Shown: positions 37,009 to 57,245, counted from the stretch's first letter. The stretch: DNA of 64,000 nt from Minisyncoccota bacterium (GCA_035549255.1 DASZRD010000005.1:58-64057), one strand, 5' to 3'. Notes: a model not told the origin generated them from the sequence alone. Made by a program: numbers and translations.

Positions 37009-37036
37009 ATTCTTATTTTAGCACAATCGACTTTTG

Positions 37037-37292
37037 CTCCGCGGGTAGGACTCGAACCTACAACCAACTCCTTACACATATCCTCTTATTACTAAAAGGT
37101 GTGGACTATATCATCTTCCCAAAGGAAGTTTCGGTATCTAGTCTCTACGGCGCCCTCGCACCATGCGAGGTTCCCACGGTGTTGCCCTCTTTAAAAGTAG
37201 GGGTTCACCGTTATCCCGAAATTATTCAATCCGCCTTGCGGCGAAAGGCTGCCTGTCGACAGGGAGCTGCTCTACCATTGAGCTACCGCGGA
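37037..37292 (-). tRNA. tRNA-Asn (anticodon GUU) interrupted by a group I intron in the anticodon loop
   Basis: Exon 1 (37292..37259): acceptor TCCGCGG, D-arm GCTC-AATGGTA-GAGC, anticodon stem GCTCC, loop CUGU. Exon 2 (37074..37037): UAA, GGAGU, variable loop, T-arm GTAGG-TTCGAGT-CCTAC, acceptor CCGCGGA, discriminator G. The spliced loop CUGUUAA matches tRNA-Asn; U1-A72 and G73 also fit Asn. Confidence 0.75.
37075..37258 (-). mobile_element. group I self-splicing intron (184 nt, Azoarcus-like subgroup IC3) within tRNA-Asn
   Basis: Conserved core: P7 strands GUAGAGACUAGAU (R, identical over 12 nt to the Azoarcus pre-tRNA-Ile intron) and AAGAUGAUAUAGUCC (S); P3/P4-like AAUUUCGGGAUAACGG; P2 hairpin CGCC-GCAA-GGCG. 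The 5' exon ends in U, which pairs with a G of the internal guide GCAG; the intron ends in G. Confidence 0.75.
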
Positions 37293-37366: not shown

Positions 37367-37708
37367 ATGGAAAAGAAGTGCAAGATCCATGGCGTCACCA
37401 AGCACTTCCCTCGCCAGGATGGATCTTGGCGTTGCGGCAAATGCGCCTCGGCTTGGGTTATAAAAAACCGCCAAAATAAGAAAGCCCGGCTTGTAGCATT
37501 GTTTGGCGGCAGATGCATAGCCTGCGGATATAAAAAATACGCTGGCGCTCTAGACTTTCATCATATTGATCCAAATAAGAAATCTTTTGCATTGAGCGTA
37601 AAGGGTCTTTCGTACTCGTGGGAGAGTTTGGTAGCAGAGGCAAAGAAATGCGTTTTGGTTTGCAAGAATTGTCATACCGAAATTGAGGCAGGAATAATTA
37701 AGATATAG
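37367..37708 (+). CDS. HNH endonuclease (free-standing, candidate intron-associated homing endonuclease)
   Basis: HNH/His-Me finger: CGKC, CIACG zinc knuckles, LDFHHIDP, CKNCH. AT-rich codons; leaderless start at the predicted TSS. Confidence 0.8.
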   Translation: MEKKCKIHGVTKHFPRQDGSWRCGKCASAWVIKNRQNKKARLVALFGGRCIACGYKKYAGALDFHHIDPNKKSFALSVKGLSYSWESLVAEAKKCVLVCKNCHTEIEAGIIKI

Positions 37709-38718: not shown

Positions 38719-39240
38719 CTAGGGACTGACGACGACGTTGACCTTGGCGCTGTCGAGCGCGGCGATGTTGGCCACGTCCGCCGTGGCGCCGTAGCCGGAC
38801 AGAGCAACCGCGAGGCCTGCCTGGGCGACATGATCAGCCTCCGCCGAGGTGTTGATCCACGCGCCGTTGTCGACGTTGTTGACCTGCGTATCGGCGACGC
38901 CGCCCAGATTGTCCACCGTAGCAGTCGCCGTGCCGTAGCCCGGATAGTTGAAGTCCGAGATCGCGACGGCAGCACCAAGCTGGATGGCGTGGTTGACCTC
39001 AGCCGACACGTTGGTGTTGCCCGTCCAGTCGCCGTCGACCGACGCCAGCGAGGCAACGTTCGTGCCGGTGGCCGAGGCATTGTTGGCAGCGTCGGCGCCG
39101 GCGAGAGCCAGCTGGCCGATGTTGTCCGCATGCGTGTGCGCGTCCACCGTGATGCCCGAAGCCATAGCGGCCGGGGCGGCGAAGAGCGCGAGCGCAGCGG
39201 CCGCAGCGGAAGCGAGCAGAATGGTCCTGAGATTCCTCAA
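38719..39240 (-). CDS. secreted repeat protein, candidate curlin-like substrate of the adjacent CsgG lipoprotein
   Basis: Signal peptide (AMA/SG); three imperfect ~45-aa repeats (SAEVNHAIQLGAAVAISDF / SAEADHVAQAGLAVALSGY). Asn/Gly/Ala/Val-rich with no Cys; last gene of the CsgG operon. Confidence 0.6.
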   Translation of the reverse strand: MRNLRTILLASAAAAALALFAAPAAMASGITVDAHTHADNIGQLALAGADAANNASATGTNVASLASVDGDWTGNTNVSAEVNHAIQLGAAVAISDFNYPGYGTATATVDNLGGVADTQVNNVDNGAWINTSAEADHVAQAGLAVALSGYGATADVANIAALDSAKVNVVVSP

Positions 39241-39347: not shown

Positions 39348-40256
39348 TCAGGTCGCCGAGGCGACTTGAGTCGTTTGGGGCGCCGGAGCGCCTTCCATCT
39401 GGAGCAGGGTCCGGCATTCCGCAACAGCGGAGCGCCGGTCCGAGATCTTTCTGGCAGCCGACAAGCTGTCGATGAAGTTGCCGAGCAAGTCCACGACCTC
39501 GTAATCGACGAGGAAACGCAGCGTACTCTGCATCGGCTCGCGGTGACCGTTATCCACCTCGAACGAGGCGTACGTAAGGCCATTGCCGGAACCGACGAAC
39601 GTACCGACGCCGAACTTGTCTTCAACCGCCGCGAATTGCTTCGCGGCGCTGCTGGTGGCGACCGTAAGACCGCCATCCGTGCTGCCGTAAGGAAGCGTGA
39701 CGAGACGGGTATCCATGCTGCCGAGCGCCGTATAAGCGCGCGAGCCGGGACCGATGCCAAATACCTGGAACGTGCCCATAGAGCCGGGCAAGAAATCCAG
39801 GGAGCTGACGCTGCCCATAAGCATGTAATTGGGCATCGCGATGGCGCCCTTGATCCCCTTCGCCCCAACCCAGTCGATGTCGGCACGGTACTCGGGCGAG
39901 AGCTCGATCAGCTGGACGCCCACTTGCGCGAGGGCCGAGTTGAACATGTTGCTCGCGCCGTTGCCGACAAAGGCACCCGTGCCATCCTCGGTTGCAGTAT
40001 TGACCTTGCCCGTTTGGTCGGCGATGAGGCCGACGCCGATCTTGAGACTGTGCACTTCCGGAATCTTGGAGATGCACGCCATGGCGGCGTCGTATGGCCC
40101 GCGGACTGTGACGGTGGCGGAGCTCTGCCCCACCAGGGTTGCAGTAGACGATGCGTCCTTGAGGAACGCCGCGCCGCTGTCGCCCTGGGCAGTGGTGCAA
40201 CCGGCAAGTGCGATAGCGCCGGCGATGCCTGCGATGATGCCTGCAATTTTGATCAT
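39348..40256 (-). CDS. csgG: CsgG-family curli production assembly/transport lipoprotein
   Basis: Lipobox IALAGC; CsgG-like blocks (IGVGLIADQTGKV, FQVFGIGPGS, DTRLVTLPYG) similar to E. coli CsgG. Confidence 0.8.
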   Translation of the reverse strand: MIKIAGIIAGIAGAIALAGCTTAQGDSGAAFLKDASSTATLVGQSSATVTVRGPYDAAMACISKIPEVHSLKIGVGLIADQTGKVNTATEDGTGAFVGNGASNMFNSALAQVGVQLIELSPEYRADIDWVGAKGIKGAIAMPNYMLMGSVSSLDFLPGSMGTFQVFGIGPGSRAYTALGSMDTRLVTLPYGSTDGGLTVATSSAAKQFAAVEDKFGVGTFVGSGNGLTYASFEVDNGHREPMQSTLRFLVDYEVVDLLGNFIDSLSAARKISDRRSAVAECRTLLQMEGAPAPQTTQVASAT

Positions 40257-40292
40257 TCCAGTCTCCTGTATGCCGCCCGGGCGGGCGCGTGG

Positions 40293-40703
40293 TTACGGGA
40301 AGGTGATCGAACCCACGTTGCCGGCGGAGATCGGGACCGAAGTCGCGTTCTGCTGGCTCTGAGCGTGGATGTCGTTGTCGACATGAATGTTCTGCGCGTT
40401 ATCGATGGTCGTCACGGAGACGCCATTGAGGTTGGTCGACTCGCCGCCGTACTGGCAGGCGGTCGCCACCGTGCAGTTCGTGTAGGTATTAGTCGTCGAC
40501 GTCGAGTTGTAGGTCGTGCTTCCCCCGCCGTTCTGGTAGAGCCAGAGCGCCTGTGCCTCATTGAAGCGGTTGGCGTCCTGGTCGGCCGAGGGAAACCCCT
40601 CGGAATTGTTCCAGTCGGAGGCAGCGCTGCCGGCGTAGGCCGGAGTCATGCCGCACAGCGCCATGAGCGCGAGCGCGGCACAACCGCATACAATCTTCTT
40701 CAT
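40293..40703 (-). CDS. hypothetical secreted protein, first gene of the CsgG operon (possible CsgF/CsgE-like accessory)
   Basis: Signal peptide (AYA/GS), Asn/Ser/Thr-rich, two Cys; weak resemblance to the CsgF N-terminus (FNEAQALWLYQNGGG vs GAFLLNSAQAQN). Confidence 0.55.
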   Translation of the reverse strand: MKKIVCGCAALALMALCGMTPAYAGSAASDWNNSEGFPSADQDANRFNEAQALWLYQNGGGSTTYNSTSTTNTYTNCTVATACQYGGESTNLNGVSVTTIDNAQNIHVDNDIHAQSQQNATSVPISAGNVGSITFP

Positions 40704-41127: not shown

Positions 41128-42045
41128 CTAATTCGTTACGACCGTATCAGAATACTGCATCGCGCACGAGGCGCCGTCGATCGGGCCTGACACTACGACA
41201 TAGTTGGATGCCGGGTTCTCGATGATCGTATGGAGGTCGGTGACGTCGCTCGCGCAATCGTCTGCCGAAGAGCGCGTCCCCTGCGAGCCGTCGAGCCAGA
41301 GGTCAAGCCACGGGTGGCCCTGGTAGCCCGTGTGGCATGGGCCATTCTGCGGAGTATTGCCGTCGCCGCAGGTGTCCTCAACGATGAAGTACTTGCGCAG
41401 GTACGGCATATAGAACTTGGTGCCCGCGGGATAATCAAGCGTGTCGGTGCGGCCCGAGATGCTGTGCCCCACCGCGACCGTGATGGGGTCGCTAAAGGTG
41501 CCCGTGCCGCCGGCCACTTGGTGAATAATCGGATTAGAAATTTCTGACGAACCCGGCGGCGTATTGTCCCAATAGGTGTACGCAGTGAGGTATGCGGTGA
41601 AGCGCACTTCTTGCGAAGCATTTTGTGCTGGCTGCGCAGGAGTCGTCGGCGTTGAAGAAGGTGGAGGAGTAGAAGATGATTGTGAGCCAGAAGAAGGCGG
41701 AGTGGTTGCCGAACCCGTAGTAGAAGTAGTCGAAGACGGATGCGAAGATGTTGCTACCGTGCCAGAACCGGAAGAAGTCTTGCCGTTACTTCCCGTTTTA
41801 GAAGCAGTTTGCGCACCCCTTCCCCACACGAAGAACGGAAATGAAGACTTCAGCGAATGCGGATACATGCTCGAGAGCGCCGCGGGGCTTGCCATCAAGG
41901 TCTCGCCCATATTATTGAACGCCTGCCCACCGACCGACTCGCCGTATTGCTTGCCGAGGTAGAACCCGAGCGCCAGCGTTGCGACAAAGAGAACGATCGC
42001 CAAAAGCTGAGAGTACCAGGTAACGCGTGTCCACTGTATAGCCAT
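41128..42045 (-). CDS. membrane-anchored 3D-domain protein (cell-wall-associated)
   Basis: N-terminal TM, Ser/Thr/Pro-rich linker, C-terminal 3D-domain-like region (RFTAYLTAY ... ITVAVGHS ... AGTKFYMP ... EDTCGDG). Confidence 0.65.
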   Translation of the reverse strand: MAIQWTRVTWYSQLLAIVLFVATLALGFYLGKQYGESVGGQAFNNMGETLMASPAALSSMYPHSLKSSFPFFVWGRGAQTASKTGSNGKTSSGSGTVATSSHPSSTTSTTGSATTPPSSGSQSSSTPPPSSTPTTPAQPAQNASQEVRFTAYLTAYTYWDNTPPGSSEISNPIIHQVAGGTGTFSDPITVAVGHSISGRTDTLDYPAGTKFYMPYLRKYFIVEDTCGDGNTPQNGPCHTGYQGHPWLDLWLDGSQGTRSSADDCASDVTDLHTIIENPASNYVVVSGPIDGASCAMQYSDTVVTN

Positions 42046-42067: not shown

Positions 42068-42484
42068 TCACGCTGGCATGCACTTGATGCACCGGCAGCC
42101 TTTCGGCTTGATATAGGCCTCGAAGTATTCGGTGTCGTAATCGTAACTAAGCTCCTCCCCCGCGATTATCTTGCGCTTGGCCATGACCCAGACGCGGCCT
42201 TTATGGATGTCGATCTCGCAGTTGGGCCGGCAGGAATGGTTAATGTAGCGGGCAGTATTGGAGCGCGCGGCGCCGTCGATGGTCTTCTTCTTGGTCACCT
42301 CAAATAAATAGAGGCTGTTGCTGTCCTCCTCTTGCTGTTTGGTGAGGACTTTGCCAGTGTATTCGATAACGCAGGCGCCCTTTTTGATATCCTCAAGCGT
42401 AAAGAGCCCCAAGCCGGCGCGCGAGCGGCCGACCCGGAGCTTTACGCCTACCGGAATAAATTTGCTTCTGCTTTTTCTTTTCAC
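42068..42484 (-). CDS. SET-domain protein-lysine methyltransferase
   Basis: SET signatures NHSCRPNCEI and GEELSYDY, plus post-SET Cys cluster CRCIKC. Confidence 0.85.
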   Translation of the reverse strand: MKRKSRSKFIPVGVKLRVGRSRAGLGLFTLEDIKKGACVIEYTGKVLTKQQEEDSNSLYLFEVTKKKTIDGAARSNTARYINHSCRPNCEIDIHKGRVWVMAKRKIIAGEELSYDYDTEYFEAYIKPKGCRCIKCMPA

Positions 42485-42512
42485 GACCCTGAAGGACCTA
42501 CGTCTGGCTAAA

Positions 42513-42767
42513 TTACTTGAGATGCGCCGAAACGAGCTTGGTCATCTCGAACATGGTGACTTCGTTCTTGCCGAAGATGGGCTTCAGCTTGTCGTCCGCC
42601 ATGATGTTGCGCTTGTTCTTGGGGTTCTGGAGGTCGTGCTTCTTGATGTACTCCCAGAGCTTCTTGACGACTTCCGAGCGCGGCATCGGGCCCTTGCCCA
42701 CGACTGCCTCGAGATCCGAAGAAAGGTCCATCGGCTTGAGCAGGGCGGGATTCGCTTTTCTAACCAT
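42513..42767 (-). CDS. SWIB/MDM2-domain protein
   Basis: 84 aa; VVKKLWEYIKKHDLQNPKNKRNIMADDKLKPIFG fits the SWIB domain consensus. Confidence 0.8.
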   Translation of the reverse strand: MVRKANPALLKPMDLSSDLEAVVGKGPMPRSEVVKKLWEYIKKHDLQNPKNKRNIMADDKLKPIFGKNEVTMFEMTKLVSAHLK

Positions 42768-42862
42768 GAGTGATTAATTAATGTATAAAAGACCGGTACT
42801 GGGAGTATACCGAAAACCCTTTTCTCTGGGAATACCCCTTATACACCCCCGCTGCGCCTTCA

Positions 42863-42891
42863 TTGACACTACAGATTCCTCCCCACACAAT
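42863..42891 (+). promoter_or_regulatory. sigma70 promoter TTGACA-17-CACAAT; predicted leaderless mRNA for the hybrid kinase
   Basis: TTGACA 42863..42868, -10 at 42886..42891, ATG at 42898. Confidence 0.45.
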
Positions 42892-42897
42892 GTCCTC

Positions 42898-44982
42898 ATG
42901 CATAGGTTGCGGGAGGCAATCTCCTTACCTCGCACCCCGAGGGAACAATGGGGCGCCGTAGGCCTCCTTATAGCCTATTTTCTTGCGATCGGAATAGGAA
43001 GCTTTCTGCATCAGGGATTAGCGGTCATAAGCTTCGCTTCCGGCGTGGGCTTAGGCGCGCTCGTGCTCGAAGGGAGCTCTCTTTGGCCCGGCATCTACCT
43101 GGGGGCGCTTGCATGGTACGTCACCAGTGGCGCCGCACCGGTATATATAGCGGTATTGCCGGTCGCGCATACCGCTCAGGCGCTGATAGGTGCCTACCTG
43201 CTGCGCGCTCTGCGCTTTGACCCACTGCTGCGGCGCCTGCGCGACATGTTCTCTCTTATGGGCGTCGCCATTTTTGCCTCGGCGATCGTGCCGATACTGG
43301 GCACCGCGGGCGTCTGGGCGACGCGCCTCTTTATCGACCCTGCCTTTCCTCTTGCCGTAACATTCGGGTCGTGGTGGACCGGCATCATGACCAGCCTCCT
43401 TATCGTGGCGCCGCTTATCATCCGCTGGGGTGCGGAGCCCGTATTCAAGCGCTCCGCGCGGCAGATTTTGGAGCTCGTGTTCGTCTTTGCGGTGCTTATC
43501 GCCATCGACTGGATGCTGCTGTGGGTGGGGATATCCTCCGTCAACGGCGTCTCGCTCGTATACATTATGCTGCTGCCGTTCTTCTGGCTGGCCATCCGTA
43601 TCGGCCCGCGCTTCACGATCCTCGCGCTGTTCCTCACCACCTGCCTCGCCATGGCGGGAACCATGTACGGGCCGCACGCCGTCGCCGACCCGGTAGCGCT
43701 CGGCAACCGGCTCTTTCAGATCGAGATATTCATCAACATCATCGCGATCATCTTCTACATCATCGCGGCGCTGCAGGAAGAGCGCGTCGAGGCGACCAAA
43801 TCGCTCACCTCCTATATCGACAAATTAGAAGAGGCGCTCAACCGCCTGAGCCTCCAGGACCGCGCCAAGAGCGACTTCATTGCCATACTCGCGCATGAAT
43901 TGAGGAATCCTCTTGCGCCCGTCGTGAGCGCGCTAGAGTTCCTGCGCCTCGGCGCGGCGCGGTCGAGCGAGGAAACGGAGACGCTCGAGCTTATGGACGA
44001 CCGCCTCCGCACCGTGCAGCGCCTACTCGACGACCTGCTCGACGTCTCGCGCATCGAGCGCTCCAAGGTCGAGCTTCAGCGCGAGGCGGTTGACTTGCGC
44101 ACCATACTCGAGCGCTCGATCCGCTCGGTCGCCGCCAAGATCGAGGGCCGCCAGCAGCAGCTCGTCTTCGAAGTGCCGCAAGAGCCACTCGTCTTATTCG
44201 CCGATCCGGTGCGCATCGAGCAGGTCGTTTCCAACCTCCTTACCAATGCAAGCAAATTCACGCCCGAAAGCGGCAGGATCTCGGTTGTAGCGACCAGAGA
44301 GGGCGATGCCGCGGTGGTGAGAGTCAAAGATACCGGCATCGGCATTGACCCAGAGCTTATCCCCCGCATTTTCGAGCCGTTCCTCCAGCTTGAGACGGGC
44401 GAGCGCAAGAGCGATGGGCTCGGCATCGGGCTGTCGCTCACCAAGCGGCTTGTCGAGATGCATGCCGGCCAGATAGAGGTCAGGAGCGGCGGCATAGACC
44501 AGGGCAGCGAGTTTACGCTGCGCTTCCCTATCGCGAACGACACGCTCGTGGTGCCGGTGGCGCAGCCGGTCGCGAGCGCCCCCGCCGCCGCCACACCAAC
44601 TCGGGTGCTTGTCGTCGACGACAACGCGGCGGCGGGACGTGGGATCGGCAAGCTCCTCGCGATCAAGGGCTTTGACGTCGAGTATGCGCAGAGCGGCGCG
44701 CAGACGCGCGAGGTTCTTACGCTCAGGAAGCCGCGCGTCATCGTGCTCGATATCGGGCTTCCGGATACCGACGGCTATACGCTCGCGCGCATCTTGCGCG
44801 TGCAAGACAATTTCACGGGCGTACTGATCGCGCTCACAGGCTACGGCCAGCAGGAGGACAAGCAGCGCGCGCTTGAGGCGGGCTTCGACGCCCACCTCAC
44901 CAAGCCGGTCGGGATCGACGAGCTCGTGGTGGCGATCAACCAGGCATTGGCGCGCATAGAGCGTGCTACTATGGCAGAATGA
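42898..44982 (+). CDS. hybrid sensor histidine kinase/response regulator with an N-terminal polytopic membrane sensor domain
   Basis: About 8 TM helices, HisKA (FIAILAHELRNPL), HATPase_c (GLGIGLSL), C-terminal receiver (VLVVDDNAAAG ... LDIGLPDTDG). Start trimmed to ATG 42898 from the track's 42781. Confidence 0.85.
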   Translation: MHRLREAISLPRTPREQWGAVGLLIAYFLAIGIGSFLHQGLAVISFASGVGLGALVLEGSSLWPGIYLGALAWYVTSGAAPVYIAVLPVAHTAQALIGAYLLRALRFDPLLRRLRDMFSLMGVAIFASAIVPILGTAGVWATRLFIDPAFPLAVTFGSWWTGIMTSLLIVAPLIIRWGAEPVFKRSARQILELVFVFAVLIAIDWMLLWVGISSVNGVSLVYIMLLPFFWLAIRIGPRFTILALFLTTCLAMAGTMYGPHAVADPVALGNRLFQIEIFINIIAIIFYIIAALQEERVEATKSLTSYIDKLEEALNRLSLQDRAKSDFIAILAHELRNPLAPVVSALEFLRLGAARSSEETETLELMDDRLRTVQRLLDDLLDVSRIERSKVELQREAVDLRTILERSIRSVAAKIEGRQQQLVFEVPQEPLVLFADPVRIEQVVSNLLTNASKFTPESGRISVVATREGDAAVVRVKDTGIGIDPELIPRIFEPFLQLETGERKSDGLGIGLSLTKRLVEMHAGQIEVRSGGIDQGSEFTLRFPIANDTLVVPVAQPVASAPAAATPTRVLVVDDNAAAGRGIGKLLAIKGFDVEYAQSGAQTREVLTLRKPRVIVLDIGLPDTDGYTLARILRVQDNFTGVLIALTGYGQQEDKQRALEAGFDAHLTKPVGIDELVVAINQALARIERATMAE

Positions 44983-47341: not shown

Positions 47342-48508
47342 ATGAACAACGCACTGGGAGCAGCAACATTGATAGCAGGGGTCGCGGTCGGCGGCATGGG
47401 CCTCGTCGCCGCCTTTATCGCGATTGCTTGCGGGATCGTGACGCTCTTGTGGTGGTGGCTGCGGGAACACAAGCGGCCGCTCTCGCTGCGCCGCTTCAAT
47501 CAGAACCCGATCCTCGGCCCTGACCCCAGCCACTGGTGGGAATCAGAGGCGGTATTCAATCCTGCGGCGTTCACCGCCGACGGGAAGGTGCACATCCTCT
47601 ACCGCGCCATGGGGCGCGACGGCATTTCGCGCATCGGCTACGCTTCGAGCGAAGACGGCGTTCGCTTTACCCGCTTGCCGTATCCGGTCTACTCGCCCGA
47701 CCGGGGCTTCGGGGTCCCGAGGACCGATCGCGTCTACGGGCCGCTCTCCTACAGCCAGACGCACTACGCCTCCGGCGGCGGATGGGGCGGCATCGAGGAC
47801 CCGCGGGCCATCAAGATCGACGGCAAGCTCTACATGAGCTTCGTCGCCTTCGACGGTTGGGGCTTCGTGCGCATGGCGCTTACCTCGATGCCGCTGCCGA
47901 AGTTCCTCAACAAAGACTGGCAATGGAAGAAAGCGGCGTTCCTTTCGCCGCCGAACGAGATCCACAAGAACTGGGTCCTCTTCCCCGAGCGCGTGGGCGG
48001 CAGGTATGCGGTGCTCCACAGCATTACGCCGAAGATCTCGATCGAGTACGTCGATTCGCTCGAGAGCTTCGACGACGAGGATACCTATATCCACTCTCCT
48101 GGCCGCTCGGGCGGCAGGCCCGGGGAGTGGGATAGCATCGTCCGCGGCGCGGGAGCACCGCCGATCAGGACATCGGAAGGATGGCTTCTGCTCTATCACG
48201 GCATGGACGCCAACAATCAGGGTATTGGCTACAAAGTGGGTGCTATGCTGCTCGACCTTGAAGACCCGACCCGCGTGCTCTATCGCAGCTCGCAGCCGAT
48301 ACTGGTCCCGAGCGAATGGTACGAGAATGACTGGAAGCCCGGCGTCATCATCGCGACCGGCGCGGTGGTTATCGGCGACGATCTGATGGTCTACTACGGC
48401 GGCGGCGACAAGTACGTCGCTGCTGCGCGCGCCAATCTGCGCGACTTCCTGCGAAGGCTCAAGTACGACGAGCAGGCCGAGCTCGAGCCGGTGAAGCTCC
48501 AGGTATAA
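47342..48508 (+). CDS. glycoside hydrolase family 130 protein (mannoside phosphorylase-like), membrane-anchored
   Basis: N-terminal TM; GH130 fold motifs (FNPAAF ... ILYRAMG ... GIEDPR ... LLYHG). Confidence 0.8.
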   Translation: MNNALGAATLIAGVAVGGMGLVAAFIAIACGIVTLLWWWLREHKRPLSLRRFNQNPILGPDPSHWWESEAVFNPAAFTADGKVHILYRAMGRDGISRIGYASSEDGVRFTRLPYPVYSPDRGFGVPRTDRVYGPLSYSQTHYASGGGWGGIEDPRAIKIDGKLYMSFVAFDGWGFVRMALTSMPLPKFLNKDWQWKKAAFLSPPNEIHKNWVLFPERVGGRYAVLHSITPKISIEYVDSLESFDDEDTYIHSPGRSGGRPGEWDSIVRGAGAPPIRTSEGWLLLYHGMDANNQGIGYKVGAMLLDLEDPTRVLYRSSQPILVPSEWYENDWKPGVIIATGAVVIGDDLMVYYGGGDKYVAAARANLRDFLRRLKYDEQAELEPVKLQV

Positions 48509-48520
48509 TACACGAGCAAT

Positions 48521-50422
48521 ATGTACGTTATCAGACGCAGCTCGCATAACCCCATCATCACGCCCATGGCCGACCGCCAATGGGAGGCGCGCGGCACGTT
48601 CAATCCCTCACCGGTCAAGAAAGGCCCGATCACGCACATCCTCTACCGCGCGCTCGGCCGCCCCGACGCGCTCATGACGCCCGCGGGTATCTCAACCATC
48701 GGAAAAGCACTCTCGATTGACGGCAAGCACTTCCAGAACCGCCGCCAATTCATCGTGCCGACCGAGGAGTGGGAAAAATTCGGCTGCGAGGACCCGCGCG
48801 CCACGTTCTTCGAAGGCAAATATTATATCTTTTATACCGCCCTCGGCGGTATGCCCTTCGGGGCGGGCAATATCAAGGTTGCGTGCGCGATATCGAAGGA
48901 TCTCGAGTCCATCGATGAGAAGCATCTCATCACCCCGTTTAACGCCAAGGCGATGGCGCTCTTCCCCGAGCGCGTGGGCGGCAAGATCACCGCGATCGTG
49001 ACCGCGCACACCGACGAGCCGCCCGCGAAGATTTCTATCGTGCAGTGCGACAAGATCGAAGATCTGTGGGATCTCGCCTTCTGGGAGAAGTGGCACGCCA
49101 ACCTCGACGATCACCGCATCAACCCCTTGCGGTTCGACCATGACCACGTCGAAGTCGGCTCCGCGCCGATCTGGACCAAGGACGGCTGGCTGATCTTCTA
49201 CTCGTACATCCAAAATTACTTCGGCGGCGGGGAGCGCGTGTTCGGCATCGAGGCGCTGCTGCTCGACCTCGACGACCCGCGGCAGATCGTCGGCCGCACG
49301 AAGGGCCCCATCATGGTCCCGGAAGAGATTTACGAGCGCTACGGCGAGGTCCCCAATATCGTCTTTCCTTCCGGCGCGCTGCTCAACAAGAACGGCCGCG
49401 TCGATATCTACTACGGCGGCGCGGACACGGTCTGCGCGCGCGCTTCTCTTAATCTCCCCGACCTCCTCTCGGCGATGATACCCTCGCGCCGCGAAGACTT
49501 GGCCGTCCGCGCCAAGGAGAATCCGATCCTCTCGCCTATCCCCGACCATGCGTGGGAGAGCAAAGAGGTCTTCAACGCCGCCGCGATCGACATCGACGAG
49601 ACCGTGCATATCCTCTATCGCGCGATCGGCGAAGACGGGGTTTCGCGCGTGGGCTATGCCACGAGCAAAAACGGCATCAAGATTACCGAGCGCCTCCCGG
49701 AGCCTATCTACGGGCCGCGCGCCGACTTCGAATCGCGCGGCTGCGAAGACCCTAGAGTGACCCGCATCGGCACTACTATATATATGGTCTATACCGCCTT
49801 CGACGGGAAGAACCCTTGGCGCGCGGCCATGACCTCGATATCGGTCAAGGACTTTCTCGCGCGCAAATGGGACAAATGGGCGCCGCCTCAGCTCATCACC
49901 CCCGACCCGGTGCAGGACAAGGACACGTGCATCTTCCCCGAGCAGATCGGCGGGCAGTACATGCTGCTCCACCGCATCGACCCCATGATGTGCGCGGATT
50001 TCCTCGATACGCTCGACTTTACGAAGAGCAGGCTCTCGCGCTGCATCGAGATTATGGGTCCGAGAGCGGGCATGTGGGATAGCAAAAAGATCGGCGTCGC
50101 CGGGCCGCCGATCGAGACTTCCAAAGGCTGGCTTCTGATCTACCACGGCGTATCGAAGACCGGCACCTACCGGCTCGGCGCAGTGCTGCTCGACGAGAAA
50201 AACCCCTCGATCGTGATCTCGCGCAGCGTCGACACCATCTTCGAGCCGATCGAGGAGTACGAGCGTACGGGCGTCGTCAACAACGCGGTCTTCTCCTGCG
50301 GCGCGGTCGTGCGCGGCGACACAATGTACGTCTATTACGGCGGTGCGGATACGGTACTTGGCGTCGCCAAGATCTCCCTCAAGAAACTCCTCAAGATTTT
50401 GCTCCCAGAGAACCTCGAGTAA
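48521..50422 (+). CDS. tandem GH130-domain protein (two mannoside-phosphorylase-like modules)
   Basis: Two repeats each carrying FNP..V..ILYRA.G, CEDPR, GWL.IYHG and YYGGAD blocks. Confidence 0.85.
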   Translation: MYVIRRSSHNPIITPMADRQWEARGTFNPSPVKKGPITHILYRALGRPDALMTPAGISTIGKALSIDGKHFQNRRQFIVPTEEWEKFGCEDPRATFFEGKYYIFYTALGGMPFGAGNIKVACAISKDLESIDEKHLITPFNAKAMALFPERVGGKITAIVTAHTDEPPAKISIVQCDKIEDLWDLAFWEKWHANLDDHRINPLRFDHDHVEVGSAPIWTKDGWLIFYSYIQNYFGGGERVFGIEALLLDLDDPRQIVGRTKGPIMVPEEIYERYGEVPNIVFPSGALLNKNGRVDIYYGGADTVCARASLNLPDLLSAMIPSRREDLAVRAKENPILSPIPDHAWESKEVFNAAAIDIDETVHILYRAIGEDGVSRVGYATSKNGIKITERLPEPIYGPRADFESRGCEDPRVTRIGTTIYMVYTAFDGKNPWRAAMTSISVKDFLARKWDKWAPPQLITPDPVQDKDTCIFPEQIGGQYMLLHRIDPMMCADFLDTLDFTKSRLSRCIEIMGPRAGMWDSKKIGVAGPPIETSKGWLLIYHGVSKTGTYRLGAVLLDEKNPSIVISRSVDTIFEPIEEYERTGVVNNAVFSCGAVVRGDTMYVYYGGADTVLGVAKISLKKLLKILLPENLE

Positions 50423-50453
50423 TCATCTGAGCACGTCGTCCACTCGCTAGATT

Positions 50454-51233
50454 ATGAACTTCAAGCCAAAACTCGTCGCGTTCGACCTCGACGGCACGCT
50501 TGCGGAGAGCAAGCGCCCGATTACCGCCGAGGTTGGCGAGCTCCTCACCGAATTGCTCCAGAAGCTGCCAGTCGCTATCATGTCGGGCGCCTCATTTGAG
50601 CAATTCCAGACGCAGGTCTTGCCGCAGATACCCGAGACGGCGCGCTTTGAGCGCCTCTACCTGTTCCCGACCAACGCCGCGCAGTGCTACATACACCGCG
50701 GATCAGGATGGCACCTCGCATATGATCGCTCGTTCAACAGCTTCGAGAAGGGGCGCATCATGCAGGCGCTCAAGGAGGCTCTCGCGGAGCAGGGCCTCGG
50801 GGACGAGTCGGCGCATCCGCAGGAATGGGGGCCGAGGATCGAGGATCGCGGCGCGCAGATCGCCTTCTCCGCGCTGGGGCAGAAAGCGCCCGTTGACCAA
50901 AAGCAGCTCTGGCATGACGCGCACGAATCCGAGCGCAAGGCGCTGCGCGACTCTCTTGCGCGGCGGCTACCCGACTTCTCGGTGCTCGAGGGCGGCCTCA
51001 CGACCGTCGATATCACCCAGAAGGGCGTCGACAAGGCCTACGGCATCCGCAAGCTCGTCGAGCTTGCCGACGTATCGGTTTCCGAGATGCTGTATGTCGG
51101 CGACGCGCTCGAAGAAGGCGGCAATGACTCGGTCGTCATCGATACGGGCGTACACACCCACGAGGTATTCGGCCCCGACGAGACTATTGCCCTCATCAAC
51201 AGCGTTCTTGACGCTCCGCGCGCCGGCCGTTAA
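50454..51233 (+). CDS. HAD-IIB phosphatase/mutase of the eukaryotic-type phosphomannomutase family
   Basis: FDLDGTL, VDITQKGVDKAYGI (like PMM DVFPKGWDKTY), GDALEEGGNDSVV (like PMM GD..GGNDYE). Confidence 0.75.
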   Translation: MNFKPKLVAFDLDGTLAESKRPITAEVGELLTELLQKLPVAIMSGASFEQFQTQVLPQIPETARFERLYLFPTNAAQCYIHRGSGWHLAYDRSFNSFEKGRIMQALKEALAEQGLGDESAHPQEWGPRIEDRGAQIAFSALGQKAPVDQKQLWHDAHESERKALRDSLARRLPDFSVLEGGLTTVDITQKGVDKAYGIRKLVELADVSVSEMLYVGDALEEGGNDSVVIDTGVHTHEVFGPDETIALINSVLDAPRAGR

Positions 51234-51236
51234 GTC

Positions 51237-53198
51237 TTAGATCGATCCGATCGCCTGGTTTAGCGTCACGACCTTGATGCCGCTTTGCTTAATGTAATTG
51301 ACCAATGACTGCAAGAAGCTCGGCGTAATCGCGTATTCATCTCCGCCGCTTTGGAGCACGTCGTGGATCTCGAGGATAAGGAGCCGCTTGTCGGCAACCG
51401 CCTGGTCGATCTCGGCTTCGAGCGAAGCAAGCGATGTCGATGAGTCAACACGAATGTCATCGAGGTTATAGCGCGGGGCCCCGGGCTCGTTGAGGCCGTA
51501 GTAGCTGCCGCGCGCGGCGCTGTAGCCGGCAGCAGCCACCATCGCGTCGGTCGAGGGGCTGCGGTCGCCATAGGGATACACGAAGGTAGTCGGCGTGATG
51601 CCCTGTTTTACAAGGTCGCTATACGAGCCGGCGATCTCCTTCTGCGCCTGCGCGGACGTCAGCGTGGTGAGGTACGGATGCGTCTGCGTGTGGCCGCCGA
51701 TCTCGAAGCCCTGCGACGCGAGGTTCTTGATCTGCGCCCAGGTCATATACCCGCTGTCGCCGCTCCCCGGCTCGGAGGTAATGATGTAGAAGCTCGCTCT
51801 CATGCCCGCGGCATTGAGTATCGGCAGCGCGTTCTGATACTGCGACAAGTCGCCGTCATCAAAGGTAAGTGCCACCATGCCGCTCGGGAGCGGGTTCTGG
51901 GGGTTGGCGGTGAGCGAAGCATTATCGATCGTAAGCGTGCCGACTGCCGCGATCGTGTGAAGCACCGTGAGCGATACCGCGCCCGTTGGCACGGTGACCT
52001 GCGCGGTGAGCGTCTGCCACGTGCCATTGGTTGCCGGAGCATCAGCGACCCAATCGTACTGATACGTGCCATCACTCATGAGGTACTCGACCGTAACATT
52101 GTCTTTGAGCGTCGAATTGTAATCGTCGGTGAACGTATAGATCGTGTGGCTCGATACCGGCACATGGTCGAAGTCCCACTTGGCGTCGCCCGAGGAGTAT
52201 TTGGTGATAGCCACCTGCGCCGCCTTGCCGCCCCCCTTGCCGGCGACCGGATAGGTAAACTTTACGTTCATCGTGCCCCAGTAATCGGCATTCCATCCGG
52301 TCGGGTTATTGGCCGTGCCCGCTTCAAGGTTGCCGTTAGCGATGAGGTTGGGACCGTTCGGCTGAGTCGGCGGAGTCGGAGGCGCCGGCTGCACGACGGT
52401 AACCGTGACGCTTGAGGTCGCAACACCCGCAGGATTCGTTGCAGTAAGCGTGTACGTCGTGGTCTGGGTTGGCGTTACCTGTTTGCTCGCGCCCGTCACG
52501 ATACCGACATTCTGGTCGATGCTGGTCGAAGACGCGTTGCTGACATTCCACGAGAGCGTGACCTGCTGGCCCGCAACGATAGTGCTGCTTGATGTGACAA
52601 ACGAGTTGATGAGGGGCTTCTGCTGCACCGGCGGCGGAGGCGGCGTAGAAGTGCTGGCCGCCTCGGTAAGCGAGTACTGATCGACTTCGACGTAACCAAT
52701 ACTCTTGAGCTCATGCGCGAAGCGCACCTTGGTGTAACCGCTCGGGATCGTGACCGTCGCGCTGAATTGCTGCCAGGCGCCCGTGCCCGAGACCGTACCG
52801 AGCGTCTGGGTAACGGAGCTGCCGTTATTCTTCGTGAAGATCGCAATCACATTCACCGACACGTTCGAGAGCGAGTAGCCCGAGAAGAGGTACGACTTAC
52901 CCGCTGCGACGCTCGCGGCGGGAGACTGCCAGTACGCGTCGCCGCTGTTCTTGTACTTGGTGATCTGCGCCTTGACGGCGTTCCCGCTGAATCCCTTGAC
53001 CGGATAATTGAATGAGACGCTGATATTAGAGCCGCTATGCTCGGTATTCCATCCCGAGGTGCCGTTGTCGAGAGAAGGGTTGGCGATAAGATTGGGTCCG
53101 CCCGCTATCGCGGTCCCGCCTATAAAAAGCACCGCTGCCGCGCATGCGGCGATAAGGATTCCTGCGGAACGTCCTGGATTTTTCATACTGCTATGCAT
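51237..53198 (-). CDS. secreted multidomain polysaccharide deacetylase (CBM-like and Ig-like domains plus C-terminal NodB domain)
   Basis: Signal anchor, two CBM4/9-like modules (NPSLDNGTSGWN, NGNLEAGTANNPTGWN), Ig-like domains with PPPP linkers, NodB motifs (ALTFDDGD, EIGGHTQTHP). Start trimmed to ATG 53198; the track ORF runs into the upstream gene. Confidence 0.8.
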   Translation of the reverse strand: MHSSMKNPGRSAGILIAACAAAVLFIGGTAIAGGPNLIANPSLDNGTSGWNTEHSGSNISVSFNYPVKGFSGNAVKAQITKYKNSGDAYWQSPAASVAAGKSYLFSGYSLSNVSVNVIAIFTKNNGSSVTQTLGTVSGTGAWQQFSATVTIPSGYTKVRFAHELKSIGYVEVDQYSLTEAASTSTPPPPPVQQKPLINSFVTSSSTIVAGQQVTLSWNVSNASSTSIDQNVGIVTGASKQVTPTQTTTYTLTATNPAGVATSSVTVTVVQPAPPTPPTQPNGPNLIANGNLEAGTANNPTGWNADYWGTMNVKFTYPVAGKGGGKAAQVAITKYSSGDAKWDFDHVPVSSHTIYTFTDDYNSTLKDNVTVEYLMSDGTYQYDWVADAPATNGTWQTLTAQVTVPTGAVSLTVLHTIAAVGTLTIDNASLTANPQNPLPSGMVALTFDDGDLSQYQNALPILNAAGMRASFYIITSEPGSGDSGYMTWAQIKNLASQGFEIGGHTQTHPYLTTLTSAQAQKEIAGSYSDLVKQGITPTTFVYPYGDRSPSTDAMVAAAGYSAARGSYYGLNEPGAPRYNLDDIRVDSSTSLASLEAEIDQAVADKRLLILEIHDVLQSGGDEYAITPSFLQSLVNYIKQSGIKVVTLNQAIGSI

Positions 53199-53232
53199 AC
53201 GTATTAATAATGATTTGATAACGCTGACAGGA

Positions 53233-54522
53233 CTAATCTCTCCCAGTACCCGGCTCAACCGTGTAGGACTTGAGCGTATGCGGTGAAGCGTACGGGTTCG
53301 GGTCCCACGTCTCGAAGCCGACCGTACCCGAATTCTGCAGGCTCGGGAGATCGGCGGCGAGCACCACTTGCCCGCCGATGAGGCACGACAACCGGCTGCC
53401 TTCGATATCGGCGCCCATATCGACACCCTCCCACGGGGAATCCTGGCGTACGGGAAGACTCGGCGATTGAGATATGAATTGCGAGACGCCGTTTGATACC
53501 TGATAAATCTGCACAGTCTGGCCGTAGCGCGAGAACGCGCACGAGGCGAAGTTGCCATCGTCGCGCATGCGCACCAGACGCGAGAAGACGCTTGTGAGGC
53601 CCCAGTCGACCGTCGTATCGACTTTATAATCGACCCAGTCCTTGCCGCCGCGGAACATGGTCATCGAGCCGGTGGTGCTCGCGGCGGCGGAGGGGCCGGT
53701 CTCGATAGAGCCGCTCTCCCCCGGCCCGAAGAAGCCGAAATACGTAAACCACTTGTCGAGAGAATCCGACGACGGAGAGAAGGTATATGGAAGCGTCGCG
53801 GGCGTGGCGGTCGCGAAGGGGTCGAAGGGCTGCGGCCCGGTCGCGACCGGCGGGTACCAGGGGGAATGAGGCGCATCCGAAGAGACCAGGCGTACTTCGT
53901 CGATATAGGCAGACCCCGGATTCTCCGCGCTCACGCTGAACCCAGTGAGCTCTTGGGGGGTCGTGGAACCGACGGAGAAATTGGCGAGCGGGACGGTAAT
54001 CTGCTGCCACTCCCCGGGCGCCAGCGCGCCCGACGCGGCATACCACGAGAGGGACTGGCGGCCGATCGAATTGCCCTGCGCGTCGTAGATATCGAGATAA
54101 AGGTCCCCCACTGCCGCATCGGGGCGGACATACAGCGAGATCGCGCTATACGGCGCCGCATCGGCCGCTGGCCCCTGCATACCGACGCTCCCGCCGGCCG
54201 CGTCGAAGGCCGCCTTGATCGACGCCGGCCCGGCGGCATACTCATCAGTCGCGCGCCAATTGGCGCTCGCGTGCCAAGTCCAGCTATCGTAGCGCAGCGG
54301 CAGCGCATCCTGGTAAAAATAGCCCGAATTAAGCGATACAGCGCCTGAGAGAAGCGATGAGGCGAAAGGATCTCGGCCGCTCTGGTACGAAACGCCCAGC
54401 GCCGCGAGCAAGTCCCCCGGCTGCGTGCGCACATAAAAGAGCGAGAGCGCCGAGGCGATGCCCGCGAGCGCCACGGCGAAGAATGCGCACCAGACTATTC
54501 TCCAAAAGCGGTCGACAATCAT
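53233..54522 (-). CDS. hypothetical membrane-anchored extracytoplasmic protein, between the synthase and the secreted deacetylase
   Basis: N-terminal TM then a 400-aa beta-rich domain; 4-nt overlap with the upstream gene, so likely co-transcribed. Confidence 0.65.
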   Translation of the reverse strand: MIVDRFWRIVWCAFFAVALAGIASALSLFYVRTQPGDLLAALGVSYQSGRDPFASSLLSGAVSLNSGYFYQDALPLRYDSWTWHASANWRATDEYAAGPASIKAAFDAAGGSVGMQGPAADAAPYSAISLYVRPDAAVGDLYLDIYDAQGNSIGRQSLSWYAASGALAPGEWQQITVPLANFSVGSTTPQELTGFSVSAENPGSAYIDEVRLVSSDAPHSPWYPPVATGPQPFDPFATATPATLPYTFSPSSDSLDKWFTYFGFFGPGESGSIETGPSAAASTTGSMTMFRGGKDWVDYKVDTTVDWGLTSVFSRLVRMRDDGNFASCAFSRYGQTVQIYQVSNGVSQFISQSPSLPVRQDSPWEGVDMGADIEGSRLSCLIGGQVVLAADLPSLQNSGTVGFETWDPNPYASPHTLKSYTVEPGTGRD

Positions 54523-57083
54523 AATAAGGTAGGCCGGGCCTCGGTCGGCGCAATCGAAGCGGAGGTCTCGGCGGTACGCGCCTCATCCGGAATAAGCGAG
54601 GCGTGCAGAGCGCCCGGAAGCTGCGGGGAGACCTCCGCGATCGTAAGCGGGGACGGGACCGGCACGAGGATGTCGCTTTGATAGAACCGCTTCGTCTCCC
54701 CCGCCTTGCGGAACTTATTCCAGCCCGCGCCGCTGCCCTCGATCGCGCGGATGACGCCGCGCATGACACTAAAGTAGAGAAGCTGCCGGTAGACCACCCG
54801 CTGCAGGGGCACGCCGATCATGAGGCGGCCCGCGCCGGGCTCCTTCCAGACGCCCCAGGCGGCATAGGCCATGTCGAAGGCGGTAAATAAGAGGAACGGC
54901 ACGAGAAGCGTGCGCATCTGGCCGAAAAGGAGGCCGAATACGAACGCCGCGTCAGTGAAGGGGTACGCGAGCGGCAGCAGGATATTGTAGATAAACACGT
55001 TGGGAAGCACGATAAGGGTCATGGGCGAGAACGGCCGCTCGAGCGCGACGCGCTTGTGCTTCCAGACGCATTGCATGGTGCCATAGACCCAGCGGAAGCG
55101 CTGCTTGAGGAAATTCTTTACCGTATGCGGCGTCTCGGTGTAGGCGATGGCCTGCGGCTCATAGACGACGCGCTTTCCCGAGCGCAGCACGGTGAGCGTC
55201 ATGTCCTGGTCCTCGACCAGCGTATCGGTCGAAAAGCCACCGAATTGCATGAGATACGACTTGCGCCACGCGCCCGCGGGCCCGGGCACGATGCCGACCG
55301 CGCCGATAGTCGAGAACGCGCGCTTGTCGATGTTCTGGCCGATCGCGTATTCGAGGGTCTGGAAAATGTCGAGCATGCGGCGGCTGCCCGTGGTGCGGAC
55401 CTTCCCCGCGACCGCGCCCACCCGCGGGTCGCTGAAGTGCTTTACGAAGTGCGCGAGCGCCCGGCGCTCAAGCACAGCGTCGGCGTCGAGAACCGCGATG
55501 ATATCGTACTTCGCGTGCTTGATGCCGATATTGAGCGCGCGGGCCTTGCCGCCGTTCTCCAGGCTCATGAGGCAGATATCGTCGTGCGGATATGCCTCGA
55601 TGACGTTGCGGACTTCCTGCGCGGTTTTGTCATATGAGCCATCGTCGAGCACGATAATCTCGCGCTTGGGGTACGAGCTGCGAATGACGCTCTCGACGGT
55701 CGCGGCGATATTCTCCTCCTCGTTATAGGCGGGGATAAGCACGGATACGCCTGCGACCTCGCGCACCTCGGGAATGATCTCCTTATAGAGGCCGCGCATG
55801 CGGCCGTACATGATGAGCGAGATGAGCGACAGCGAGCGGACGCCGACAAGCGCGAGCGTGAAGATCGCGAGCCCCATAAGGCCGCGGTAGATGATCGGGA
55901 AGAAATATATATAGAGGCTGCGCATGGCTTCGCCCAGCCCCAAGAGCGCGATGACCGCCCATGCGCTCCAGCCCGCGGCCGCCCCAGGGGCGGCCGCGGG
56001 CGCCGCTGCGAGCGCGGACTCGAGCGACATCGAGTGGATAAGGTTGCGGGTCGCCTGGTCGGCCTTGCCGGCGCGGGACGGGTCGGGGTTGCCCGAATCG
56101 ACAAGCTTGTTGGCGGTCTGAAAGTTGAGCAGCGCCGCGCGCGTCGCTGCGTCGAATACGCCGGTAAGCGCGTACGGGTCGAGGTACTTCTGCATATAAA
56201 GGAACCATTGGAGCTGCGATACCGCGCCGCCGGTTGTGGCATCAGTCGCGCCGAGCGCAAGCGTCGAAGGAAGCGAGATCGTCGTAGGCGGCGTCAGGAG
56301 CGAGGAGAGCGGCACGACGCTGTAGCCGTGGTCTTTGAGATAGCCGAGAATCGCAGGCAGGGCCTTGGCGGTCGCCACGTCCTCATGAAGGAGGATGATG
56401 TGGCCGTTGGGTTTCTCCGCAAGCGCGCGGTCAAGGTCAGCGACCATTTGCGGCGTCGTAGTCGCATACCACTTGGTCGGATCGATGTCGGCACCCACCG
56501 GCAGATACCCGAGCTCGAGGGACCACAGGAGGTCTTTGGGCGGCGGCACATAAGGGTTGAGGGTCGGGTCGGACCCGACGCCGGAGAGATACGGCGGACG
56601 GTAGAAGAGCGGCTGCTGCCCCGTGATCTGCGAGATAAGATACCCGGTCGAGTTGAGCTCGAGCGCAAGGCGCTTGTAGGAAGACTGCGCGTCCCGGGCA
56701 TGCGTGAAGGAAAGGTTCCCGACCGTAAAGCCGTCATCGCTCGCCTCCTTGACCAAGTCGGGCCGCGTGAGCACATCCTTTCCTATATAGAAGAACGTTG
56801 CCGGCACACCCTCCTTCGATAGTTCGTTGAAGAAGAGCTGCGACGCATCGGGCGTCGGACCGTCGTCTATCGTGAGCGCGACCTTGTCGGCATTCGCCGC
56901 GCTGAAGTAGTAGTGATAGCGCTCGGCGATATCCGCATACGGAAGCGAGGCGCGCCCGGCGGTAGTGCTCGCGAGGCCGAACAAAAAAATAAGAACGAAC
57001 GAAAGGAGAAAGAATATGAAAAAGACCGCAGCGGCCCTGAAATATAGTTTGCGTCGTTTAGAGGTATCGAAAAATACAGGCAT
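54519..57083 (-). CDS. fused polysaccharide deacetylase (NodB) / peptidoglycan-binding domain / processive family-2 glycosyltransferase (PgaC/IcaA-like synthase)
   Basis: N-terminal TM; NodB (ALTIDDGPT, HIILLHED); PG_binding_1-like (AVSQLQWFLYMQKYL...GVFDAATRAALLNFQ); TM block; GT2 (VLIPAYNEEENI, DADAVLE, QRFRWVYG = QxxRW); C-terminal TMs. Confidence 0.85.
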   Translation of the reverse strand: MPVFFDTSKRRKLYFRAAAVFFIFFLLSFVLIFLFGLASTTAGRASLPYADIAERYHYYFSAANADKVALTIDDGPTPDASQLFFNELSKEGVPATFFYIGKDVLTRPDLVKEASDDGFTVGNLSFTHARDAQSSYKRLALELNSTGYLISQITGQQPLFYRPPYLSGVGSDPTLNPYVPPPKDLLWSLELGYLPVGADIDPTKWYATTTPQMVADLDRALAEKPNGHIILLHEDVATAKALPAILGYLKDHGYSVVPLSSLLTPPTTISLPSTLALGATDATTGGAVSQLQWFLYMQKYLDPYALTGVFDAATRAALLNFQTANKLVDSGNPDPSRAGKADQATRNLIHSMSLESALAAAPAAAPGAAAGWSAWAVIALLGLGEAMRSLYIYFFPIIYRGLMGLAIFTLALVGVRSLSLISLIMYGRMRGLYKEIIPEVREVAGVSVLIPAYNEEENIAATVESVIRSSYPKREIIVLDDGSYDKTAQEVRNVIEAYPHDDICLMSLENGGKARALNIGIKHAKYDIIAVLDADAVLERRALAHFVKHFSDPRVGAVAGKVRTTGSRRMLDIFQTLEYAIGQNIDKRAFSTIGAVGIVPGPAGAWRKSYLMQFGGFSTDTLVEDQDMTLTVLRSGKRVVYEPQAIAYTETPHTVKNFLKQRFRWVYGTMQCVWKHKRVALERPFSPMTLIVLPNVFIYNILLPLAYPFTDAAFVFGLLFGQMRTLLVPFLLFTAFDMAYAAWGVWKEPGAGRLMIGVPLQRVVYRQLLYFSVMRGVIRAIEGSGAGWNKFRKAGETKRFYQSDILVPVPSPLTIAEVSPQLPGALHASLIPDEARTAETSASIAPTEARPTLL

Positions 57084-57245
57084 ACAGCCGAGACAGCATT
57101 GTTGCTGCGGCTGGTTCCCCCGGTTATGCGGTTATTGCGCACGCATACTGGATGATGCGCGCACACCAAAAGTATAGCGCATATCGCAGAGGTGTATAGC
57201 GTAAACCGGTGTGGAAATCAGAATCGTATATATTGGAGTACAGAT

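Follow-up and report, generated by a model that had tools for sequence, protein, structure and literature searches.

The stretch of DNA analysed here, 64,000 nucleotides from a Minisyncoccota bacterium (GCA_035549255.1, DASZRD010000005.1:58-64057) and called the window in the following, carries on its minus strand two small adjacent genes whose products belong to domain families of eukaryotic chromatin regulators, a SWIB/MDM2-domain protein and, directly downstream, a SET-domain protein. Back to back with this pair lies the gene of a hybrid sensor histidine kinase with a MASE1 domain. The features of the locus are as follows.

42068..42484, minus strand: gene of a predicted SET-domain protein-lysine methyltransferase (Pfam SET), 138 amino acids, GTG start
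42485..42512, minus strand: SWIB-SET spacer of 28 nucleotides, which leaves no room for a separate promoter and leader
42513..42767, minus strand: gene of a SWIB/MDM2-domain protein (Pfam SWIB), 84 amino acids, ATG start
42768..42897, no strand assigned: divergent intergenic region between SWIB and kinase genes, 130 nucleotides, promoter-like sites on both strands
42898..44982, plus strand: gene of a MASE1-HisKA-HATPase_c-REC hybrid sensor histidine kinase (Pfam), divergent from SWIB-SET
41128..42045, minus strand: downstream open reading frame (ORF) of 305 amino acids, with an N-terminal membrane anchor, a Ser/Thr/Pro-rich linker and a C-terminal domain

A preliminary description of this DNA had assigned the two small minus-strand genes to the SET and SWIB families, and domain searches bear this out. 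The SET protein matched Pfam PF00856 (E 2.1e-23, 83.2 bits, cut-off 22.4) with residues 24-116 over profile positions 1-104 of 105, and the SWIB protein matched PF02201 (E 2.7e-31, 107.6 bits, cut-off 25) with residues 11-83 over positions 1-74 of 74; judged by these profile scores, chance is ruled out for both. When sequences of solved structures were compared, the SET protein was nearest to the SET domains of KMT2D, KMT2C and MLL1 (E 3e-18 to 2e-16), and the SWIB protein matched yeast UAF30 (E 1.2e-17) as well as the SWIB domains of the BAF60/SMARCD proteins (E 1e-5 to 2e-4). The protein lengths, the position of SWIB upstream on the same strand and the motifs that had been quoted (NHSCRPNCEI, GEELSYDY and CRCIKC, all contained in the 138-amino-acid ORF) were likewise found as described. 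A contig of 177 kb in the metagenome-assembled genome GCA_964442315.1 encodes identical SET and SWIB proteins; this genome is that of a Candidatus Paceibacterota, a member of the ultra-small Patescibacteria. Both proteins already carry the correct annotation in the public record. The GTG start of the SET gene is supported by an identical 138-amino-acid protein deposited at NCBI (P0001; proteins and loci of the comparison are given by P and L numbers) and by a basic N-terminal stretch that is kept among homologs with the consensus KKKxKFxPG.

The SET protein is composed of a basic N-terminal tail rich in lysine and arginine, the SET core and a variant post-SET segment. In two alignments (A1 and A2) of 28-30 homologs, alphaproteobacterial and spirochaete ones among them, residues G24, G26, Y42, N82, H83, C85, E111, L112, Y114, Y116, C130 and C132 were invariant, and S84 and C135 were present in at least 90% of the sequences of both, S84 being invariant in A1. 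All motifs for AdoMet (S-adenosylmethionine) binding and catalysis are there, namely GxG, NHSC and ELxYDY with the catalytic Tyr. Thus, with its catalytic residues conserved across homologs, the enzyme looks catalytically intact. The post-SET cysteine cluster was confirmed in part: CRCIKC is present, but its spacing is C-x-C-x2-C throughout the family and not the canonical C-x-C-x4-C. Together with C85, the conserved C130, C132 and C135 make up four candidate zinc ligands; this region has a predicted local distance difference test score (pLDDT) of 67-73 in an AlphaFold2 model that reaches 82.3 overall, with a predicted template modelling score (pTM) of 0.73. Searching solved structures with this model by Foldseek returned the SET domains of MLL1/MLL3 and GLP/G9a as best matches (E 5e-10, template modelling (TM) score 0.6-0.77), and according to the model the protein adopts the SET beta-fold. 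Tyr114 occupies the position that we take to be the Phe/Tyr product-specificity switch, corresponding to MLL1 Y3942. In that case, mono- or di-methylation would be the favoured outcome.

The SWIB protein is a stand-alone domain preceded by an N-terminal tail of 10 residues. In genomes where the kinase is 38% and the SET protein 52-54% identical to the window proteins, SWIB identity still amounts to 87-88%, and by this measure of sequence SWIB is under core-gene-like constraint. Its domain also matches the C-termini of the NCBIfam Topo I/SWI and Topo III models and of an orphan DNA methyltransferase model of PADLOC. The stand-alone SWIB protein Wcw_0377 of Waddlia gave a chromatin immunoprecipitation sequencing (ChIP-seq) signal genome-wide, along the whole chromosome (PMC6426960), and the plant plastid protein SWIB-4 was shown to bind DNA, to compact nucleoids and to complement an E. 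coli hns mutant (PMC4154389). On account of these two precedents and of the fusions to topoisomerases and to the DNA methyltransferase model, our best guess by analogy is that the window SWIB may be a nucleoid-associated protein or an adaptor. Its N-terminus (M)VRKANPA, which resembles ARKS of histone H3, was considered as a target of the SET enzyme and rejected: P0122, P0129 and P0199 have Thr in place of K4, and the SWIB proteins near SET in L049 and L099 lack the motif.

SWIB and SET may well form one transcription unit. A site scan of the minus strand found no terminator-like site in or near the 28-nucleotide spacer, nor just past SET. Upstream of SWIB, the divergent region contains the minus-strand promoter-like site TTCCCA-17-TATACT (42832..42804); on the plus strand it contains TTGACA-17-CACAAT (42863..42891), which ends 7 nucleotides ahead of the kinase ATG at 42898. 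Both sites keep their elements in L003, a near relative whose divergent region is 87% identical to that of the window. Given the short gap, the lack of a terminator-like site and the promoter-like elements conserved upstream of SWIB, co-transcription of the two genes is plausible. The unit may even extend further, as the 305-amino-acid ORF begins 22 nucleotides past the SET stop and may be co-transcribed as a third gene. This ORF has no Pfam or NCBIfam match, and no functional link of it to SWIB or SET is apparent. A full-length homolog (74% identity over 309 amino acids) lies directly downstream of SET in L003, another is found elsewhere in the neighbourhood in L087, and the public record annotates only the C-terminal 159 amino acids. 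As for the plus strand, the kinase mRNA would be leaderless if the TTGACA-17-CACAAT site were its promoter, site and start codon together lying within 42863..42898.

The pairing of SWIB and SET was followed through 84 SET-centred loci from genome and metagenome scans, plus 3 that were looked up, by searching their flanks for SWIB. Collapsing the SET sequences at 90% identity and removing genomes from outside the candidate phyla radiation (CPR) left 38 non-redundant loci. SWIB was found anywhere in the sequenced flank in four of them (L003, with a gap of about 24-28 nucleotides; L010, 117 nucleotides; L049, 1.0 kb; L099, 1.3 kb), and within 120 nucleotides in two. With a single gene placed at random in a genome of 0.8 Mb, a null model that ignores shared ancestry, 0.305 loci were expected; the observed four are about 13-fold above random (Poisson P 2.8e-4). 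L101 and L102, which were picked for their apparent SET and SWIB linkage and are hence excluded from the frequencies, have the same SWIB-to-SET tandem with gaps of 60 and 90 nucleotides amid wholly different flanking genes: a peptidoglycan (PG)-binding protein gene, SWIB and SET, bordered by Exo_endo_phos, as compared with the kinase gene bordering SWIB, SET and the gene of the 305-amino-acid protein in the window and L003. The tandem thus occurs in the same order and on the same strand in three unrelated flank sets (window/L003, L010 and L101/L102). As it recurs with different flanking genes, it is not a one-off accident. Looser proximity of SET and SWIB, over 1-4.5 kb, was seen in L049, L099, L087 and L090-L092, and when six SWIB-centred contexts were inspected, SET lay 1.5-4.5 kb off in three (L087, L090/91 and L092). 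The ordered SWIB-SET pair is therefore real, recurrent and above chance; it is also restricted in lineage, often broken and not an obligate module. Accordingly, the likely operon of the preliminary description gains from the short gap, from the lack of a terminator-like site and from the recurrence of the tandem in three flank sets, whereas the notion of conserved neighbours holds for a minority of loci (2/38 within 120 nucleotides, 4/38 in any flank), albeit above the approximately 0.3 expected by chance.

A second recurrent context of SET among Paceibacterota is translation-related. In L006, L007, L011, L025, L026, L045, L046, L049, L067, L099 and L100, the SET gene is divergent from the gene of the ribosome hibernation factor S30AE and lies by def and fmt. 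There is no MASE1 kinase in this context, and in L049 and L099 SWIB sits between S30AE and SET. In two related genomes, a Hist_deacetyl gene (PF00850) lies about 5 kb from SET within the neighbourhood of SWIB, kinase and SET (L090, 19319..20194; L091, 19592..20255), which may be a coincidence.

The preliminary description did not mention the MASE1 kinase, which turned out to be the more constant neighbour of SET. In the window, all four domains (MASE1, HisKA, HATPase_c and REC) score above their Pfam cut-offs; the public record holds a 694-amino-acid form of the protein. Clustering of all flanking ORFs identified the kinase as the most recurrent real SET neighbour (17 loci), and it is present in 7/38 non-redundant loci as compared with approximately 0.3 expected (Poisson P 3.8e-8, with phylogeny ignored). 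It occurs in three arrangements. The kinase gene is divergent from SET in L003, L004, L009, L018, L040-44 and L087, lies on the same strand 35-45 nucleotides downstream of SET in L027, L029 and L071-73, in which SET is about 51% identical to that of the window, and is parted from SET by msrB and truB in L090-92. The SET-linked kinases share no more than 35-41% identity with that of the window, and the groups have no other flanking genes in common. All of the five SET-adjacent kinases tested have the same four-domain architecture, in divergent and same-strand arrangements alike. Hence the kinase is a steadier SET partner than SWIB and is linked to SET across much deeper divergence. In L098, a stand-alone REC gene lies divergent from SET; the idea that it is a remnant of the hybrid kinase was discarded, since its product has no significant similarity to the kinase.

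In the preliminary description both domains were said to be sporadic in bacteria. This does not hold for Patescibacteria/CPR. In a collection of 5.8 billion proteins we found 2,814 relatives of the SET protein; the best 120 of these are 63-80% identical to it and nearly all are stand-alone proteins of 130-170 amino acids, those with a named source coming from Paceibacterota, Parcubacteria and related groups. Relatives of the SWIB protein number at least 8,000, the best 120 at 82-94% identity. On these sequence counts, both are very common stand-alone proteins in Patescibacteria/CPR. In reviews, more than 500 bacterial genomes with SET proteins had been counted by 2014 (PMC10117894; PMC3980110), and SWIB proteins have been noted before in Patescibacteria gene pools (PMC12455944).

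SET proteins with 58-66% identity to the CPR protein are also encoded by Methyloceanibacter, Hyphomonadaceae, Caulobacterales and other Alphaproteobacteria (L015-L017, L020, L022-L024, L034, L058, L061, L065 and L066). At these loci, neither SWIB nor the MASE1 kinase was found within 4 kb. In a crude neighbour-joining tree of about 130 amino acids, the alphaproteobacterial sequences are nested inside the CPR diversity, which hints at older, inter-phylum transfer of the SET subfamily. Recent horizontal acquisition of the window genes was considered and finds no compositional support: GC content and GC content at third codon positions (GC3) are 0.54 and 0.73 for SET and 0.55 and 0.85 for SWIB, inside the range of the neighbouring genes and thus native-like.

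We tentatively read the locus as a co-transcribed unit of SWIB and an endogenous SET methyltransferase, loosely tied to the sensor kinase, and hold this reading with a little less than even confidence. According to it, this Candidatus Paceibacterota genome would possess a two-gene SWIB-SET unit, possibly extended by the downstream membrane-protein gene. SWIB would most likely have its place at the nucleoid of the cell itself, in the role of a small architectural protein associated with DNA or of an adaptor to DNA enzymes, and the MLL-like SET enzyme would most likely use S-adenosylmethionine to mono- or di-methylate lysines of an endogenous basic protein. An endogenous role fits the core-gene-like constraint on SWIB, the native-like GC3 of both genes and the presence in Methyloceanibacter and other Alphaproteobacteria of SET homologs with 58-66% identity. 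Precedents for SET proteins that act on prokaryotic DNA-binding proteins are cpnSET on Hc1, as summarised in PMC10117894, and Go1-SET on MC1-alpha, to judge from the title of Manzur and Zhou 2005 as listed there. SWIB and SET would be expressed together from a region that they share back to back with the MASE1 kinase gene. As the link of SET to the kinase spans deeper divergence than that to SWIB, the expression or activity of SET would likeliest be coupled to a signal from the envelope or membrane, SWIB being a third neighbour that is often present yet can be dispensed with. Functional coupling of SET and SWIB is a possibility to reckon with, short of being probable. A more elaborate scheme appears quite unlikely, in which SWIB, SET and the kinase constitute a signal-responsive system for methylation of nucleoid proteins, a membrane signal at MASE1 being passed on through phosphorelay or through the shared promoter region so that SET methylates SWIB or a SWIB-associated nucleoid protein. 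If true, such a three-gene system would give organisms with genomes of about 1 Mb and very few transcription factors a bacterial equivalent of chromatin marking that is coupled to signals.

Several observations weigh against a functional unit of SWIB and SET and are compatible with incidental neighbours, that is, with two independent and common housekeeping genes in residual synteny whose co-transcription has no functional meaning. No SWIB gene was present in the sequenced flank of 34/38 non-redundant SET loci, and in the other three of the six SWIB-centred contexts (L088, L094/95 and L096/97) there was no SET within 4-10 kb of SWIB; neither protein therefore needs the other nearby. In Chlamydia, too, in which both domains had been noticed first, the genes CT737, CT460 and CT643 are at separate loci. 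In our rough tree, the loci with SWIB upstream on the same strand all fall into one crown SET clade, where they are interspersed with SWIB-less loci, and so a single ancestral arrangement in decay would also explain them. The promoter- and terminator-like sites are not more numerous than in shuffled sequence and amount to weak hints supported by conservation. Furthermore, the probable third gene of the unit, with its unrelated membrane-protein product, has no chromatin connection; adjacency is no guarantee of shared function, and caution is due in reading function from adjacency alone. What speaks against coincidence is that the ordered tandem outlasted complete replacement of its flanks (window/L003 versus L101/L102 versus L010), that SET and SWIB are again close to each other in the unrelated def-fmt-S30AE context of L049 and L099, that the pair is about 13 times as frequent as expected at random, and that others had independently described co-occurrence of the two domains in bacterial genomes (Aravind et al. 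2011, cited in PMC6426960). On balance, we regard incidental neighbourhood as a possible if somewhat doubtful explanation.

SET might also belong with the kinase, as output, target or modulator of its phosphorelay, SWIB being a bystander inserted between them. The frequency and the three arrangements of the SET-kinase adjacency, the lack of other shared flanking genes and the occurrence of this adjacency in all parts of the SET tree, also in the clade whose SET proteins are about 51% identical to that of the window, all agree with such a link, as does the kinase architecture, which is devoid of a DNA-binding output domain. On the other hand, 31/38 non-redundant SET loci have no kinase in the flank, the kinase is missing from the common def-fmt-S30AE context, and in L098 the syntenic slot is occupied by an unrelated single-domain REC protein. 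No mechanism that connects SET with a kinase is known, and among the papers searched we found none that mentions both MASE1 and the SET domain. We consider this explanation unlikely. Still less probable is a host-directed effector, i.e. a SET protein, possibly together with SWIB, that is delivered to a host cell to methylate histones or histone-like proteins there, after the manner of NUE of Chlamydia, RomA/LegAS4 of Legionella, BtSET of Burkholderia or BaSET of Bacillus. CPR bacteria are mostly episymbionts, the functionally characterised bacterial SET proteins in a review table all target host histones (PMC10117894), and the SWIB protein of Waddlia reaches the host nucleus (PMC6426960); moreover, the SET N-terminus is lysine- and arginine-rich and the sole NCBIfam match of the protein is the LegAS4 model. 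This match, however, reaches 42.3 bits where the cut-off is 550, and it is confined to the shared SET core. The known hosts of CPR bacteria are mainly bacteria and some archaea, most of them without eukaryote-type histone tails, which counts against an effector. There are no secretion genes among the annotated neighbours, no signal peptide is evident, though without formal prediction, and SWIB is conserved like a core cellular component. Because of the LegAS4 score far below the cut-off, the missing secretion context and the close SET homologs in Methyloceanibacter and other Alphaproteobacteria, an effector role is unlikely, and we attach very little weight to it. An anti-phage defence system was considered as well and rejected, as PADLOC has no match for SET and the SWIB match concerns the shared domain at the C-terminus of the orphan methyltransferase model.

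Among known systems, the closest case to the endogenous SWIB-SET unit that we favour is the chlamydial set of NUE/cpnSET (CT737), SWIB (CT460, or Wcw_0377 in Waddlia) and TopA-SWIB (CT643). There, too, each domain is found in a small bacterial protein, of about 85-90 amino acids in the case of the stand-alone SWIB, and cpnSET was proposed to methylate histone-like proteins (Hc1). It was with regard to this trio that co-occurrence of SET and SWIB had been noted. In contrast to the separate chlamydial loci, the window genes form a tandem with a 28-nucleotide gap in a member of the Paceibacterota; and whereas NUE leaves the cell by type III secretion and acts as an effector on histones of the host, the present locus shows no sign of secretion. 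Neither an Hc1-like gene nor a topoisomerase-SWIB fusion was seen in the 64-kb window. Eukaryotic SET and post-SET domains of the KMT2/MLL (Trithorax) type provide the best matches in sequence and structure (E 3e-18; 36-38% identity in structural alignments, TM 0.6-0.65), with the same GxG, NHSC and ELxYDY motifs. They differ from the 138-amino-acid CPR protein, which has neither flanking regulatory domains nor WRAD-type partners, in the C-x-C-x4-C spacing of the post-SET cysteines (C-x-C-x2-C in CPR), and a histone substrate is missing in the CPR organism. For the 84-amino-acid protein, the best functional analogy may be the plant organellar SWIB-4 (Melonek et al. 2012), which is likewise a small stand-alone SWIB and acts on a nucleoid of bacterial type; the CPR protein, known here from its sequence, has a mere 10-residue N-terminal tail by comparison. 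As a mechanistic model we prefer Go1-SET and MC1-alpha of Methanosarcina mazei, as far as the listed title conveys them, with a minimal prokaryotic SET protein and an endogenous DNA-associated target. This system is archaeal, its partner is MC1-alpha rather than SWIB and no kinase linkage is known for it.

Co-occurrence of SET and SWIB in bacteria, apparently at the genome level, is already published (Aravind, Abhiman and Iyer 2011, cited in PMC6426960). In the papers searched we found no SET-SWIB operon or tandem in CPR bacteria and no linkage of SET to a MASE1 kinase; the SET-kinase linkage adds a small observation that is new. Hardly any endogenous substrate of a bacterial SET protein is known, the characterised examples being nearly all host-directed effectors of pathogens. 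Paceibacterota offer a well conserved minimal SET protein and an even better conserved SWIB protein that need no eukaryotic host as explanation. The pair is thus a clean system for eukaryote-like chromatin domains inside bacteria and for the debate on their prokaryotic origin, and the recurring MASE1 kinase is a concrete, testable handle on regulation. The pairing is not a fixed module, and no new mechanism is demonstrated by it.

Elsewhere in the window, the tRNA-Thr(UGU) gene (37036..37292, minus strand) has its anticodon loop interrupted by a 184-nucleotide group I intron. ARAGORN finds this gene when introns are allowed and misses it in a default run. The intron scores 50.1 bits with the Rfam model Intron_gpI (gathering score 50) and lies where the GC content of the window dips (to about 0.50). 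An adjoining ORF of 113 amino acids (37367..37708, plus strand) shows the pattern CxxC...HH...CxxCH and is on this account a candidate HNH endonuclease. Further on, a lipoprotein gene (39348..40256, minus strand) resembles the curli secretion channel CsgG at a score just below the threshold (19.6 bits versus 20.8) and is flanked by secreted-looking Asn/Gly/Ala/Thr-rich ORFs at 40293..40703 and 38719..39240 on the minus strand, for which there is no Pfam match. Together, the minus-strand genes from 38719 to 40703 may form a cluster for the secretion of curli-like fibres, here in a CPR bacterium. Finally, 47342..62411 is a large cell-surface and glycan block with two GH130 mannoside phosphorylases, a phosphomannomutase-like hydrolase and polysaccharide deacetylase/GT2 fusion proteins, as well as a 1,595-amino-acid protein with immunoglobulin (Ig)-like, MBG and PG-binding domains. 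The BacA-cupin-GH130 block of the window is syntenic with L098.

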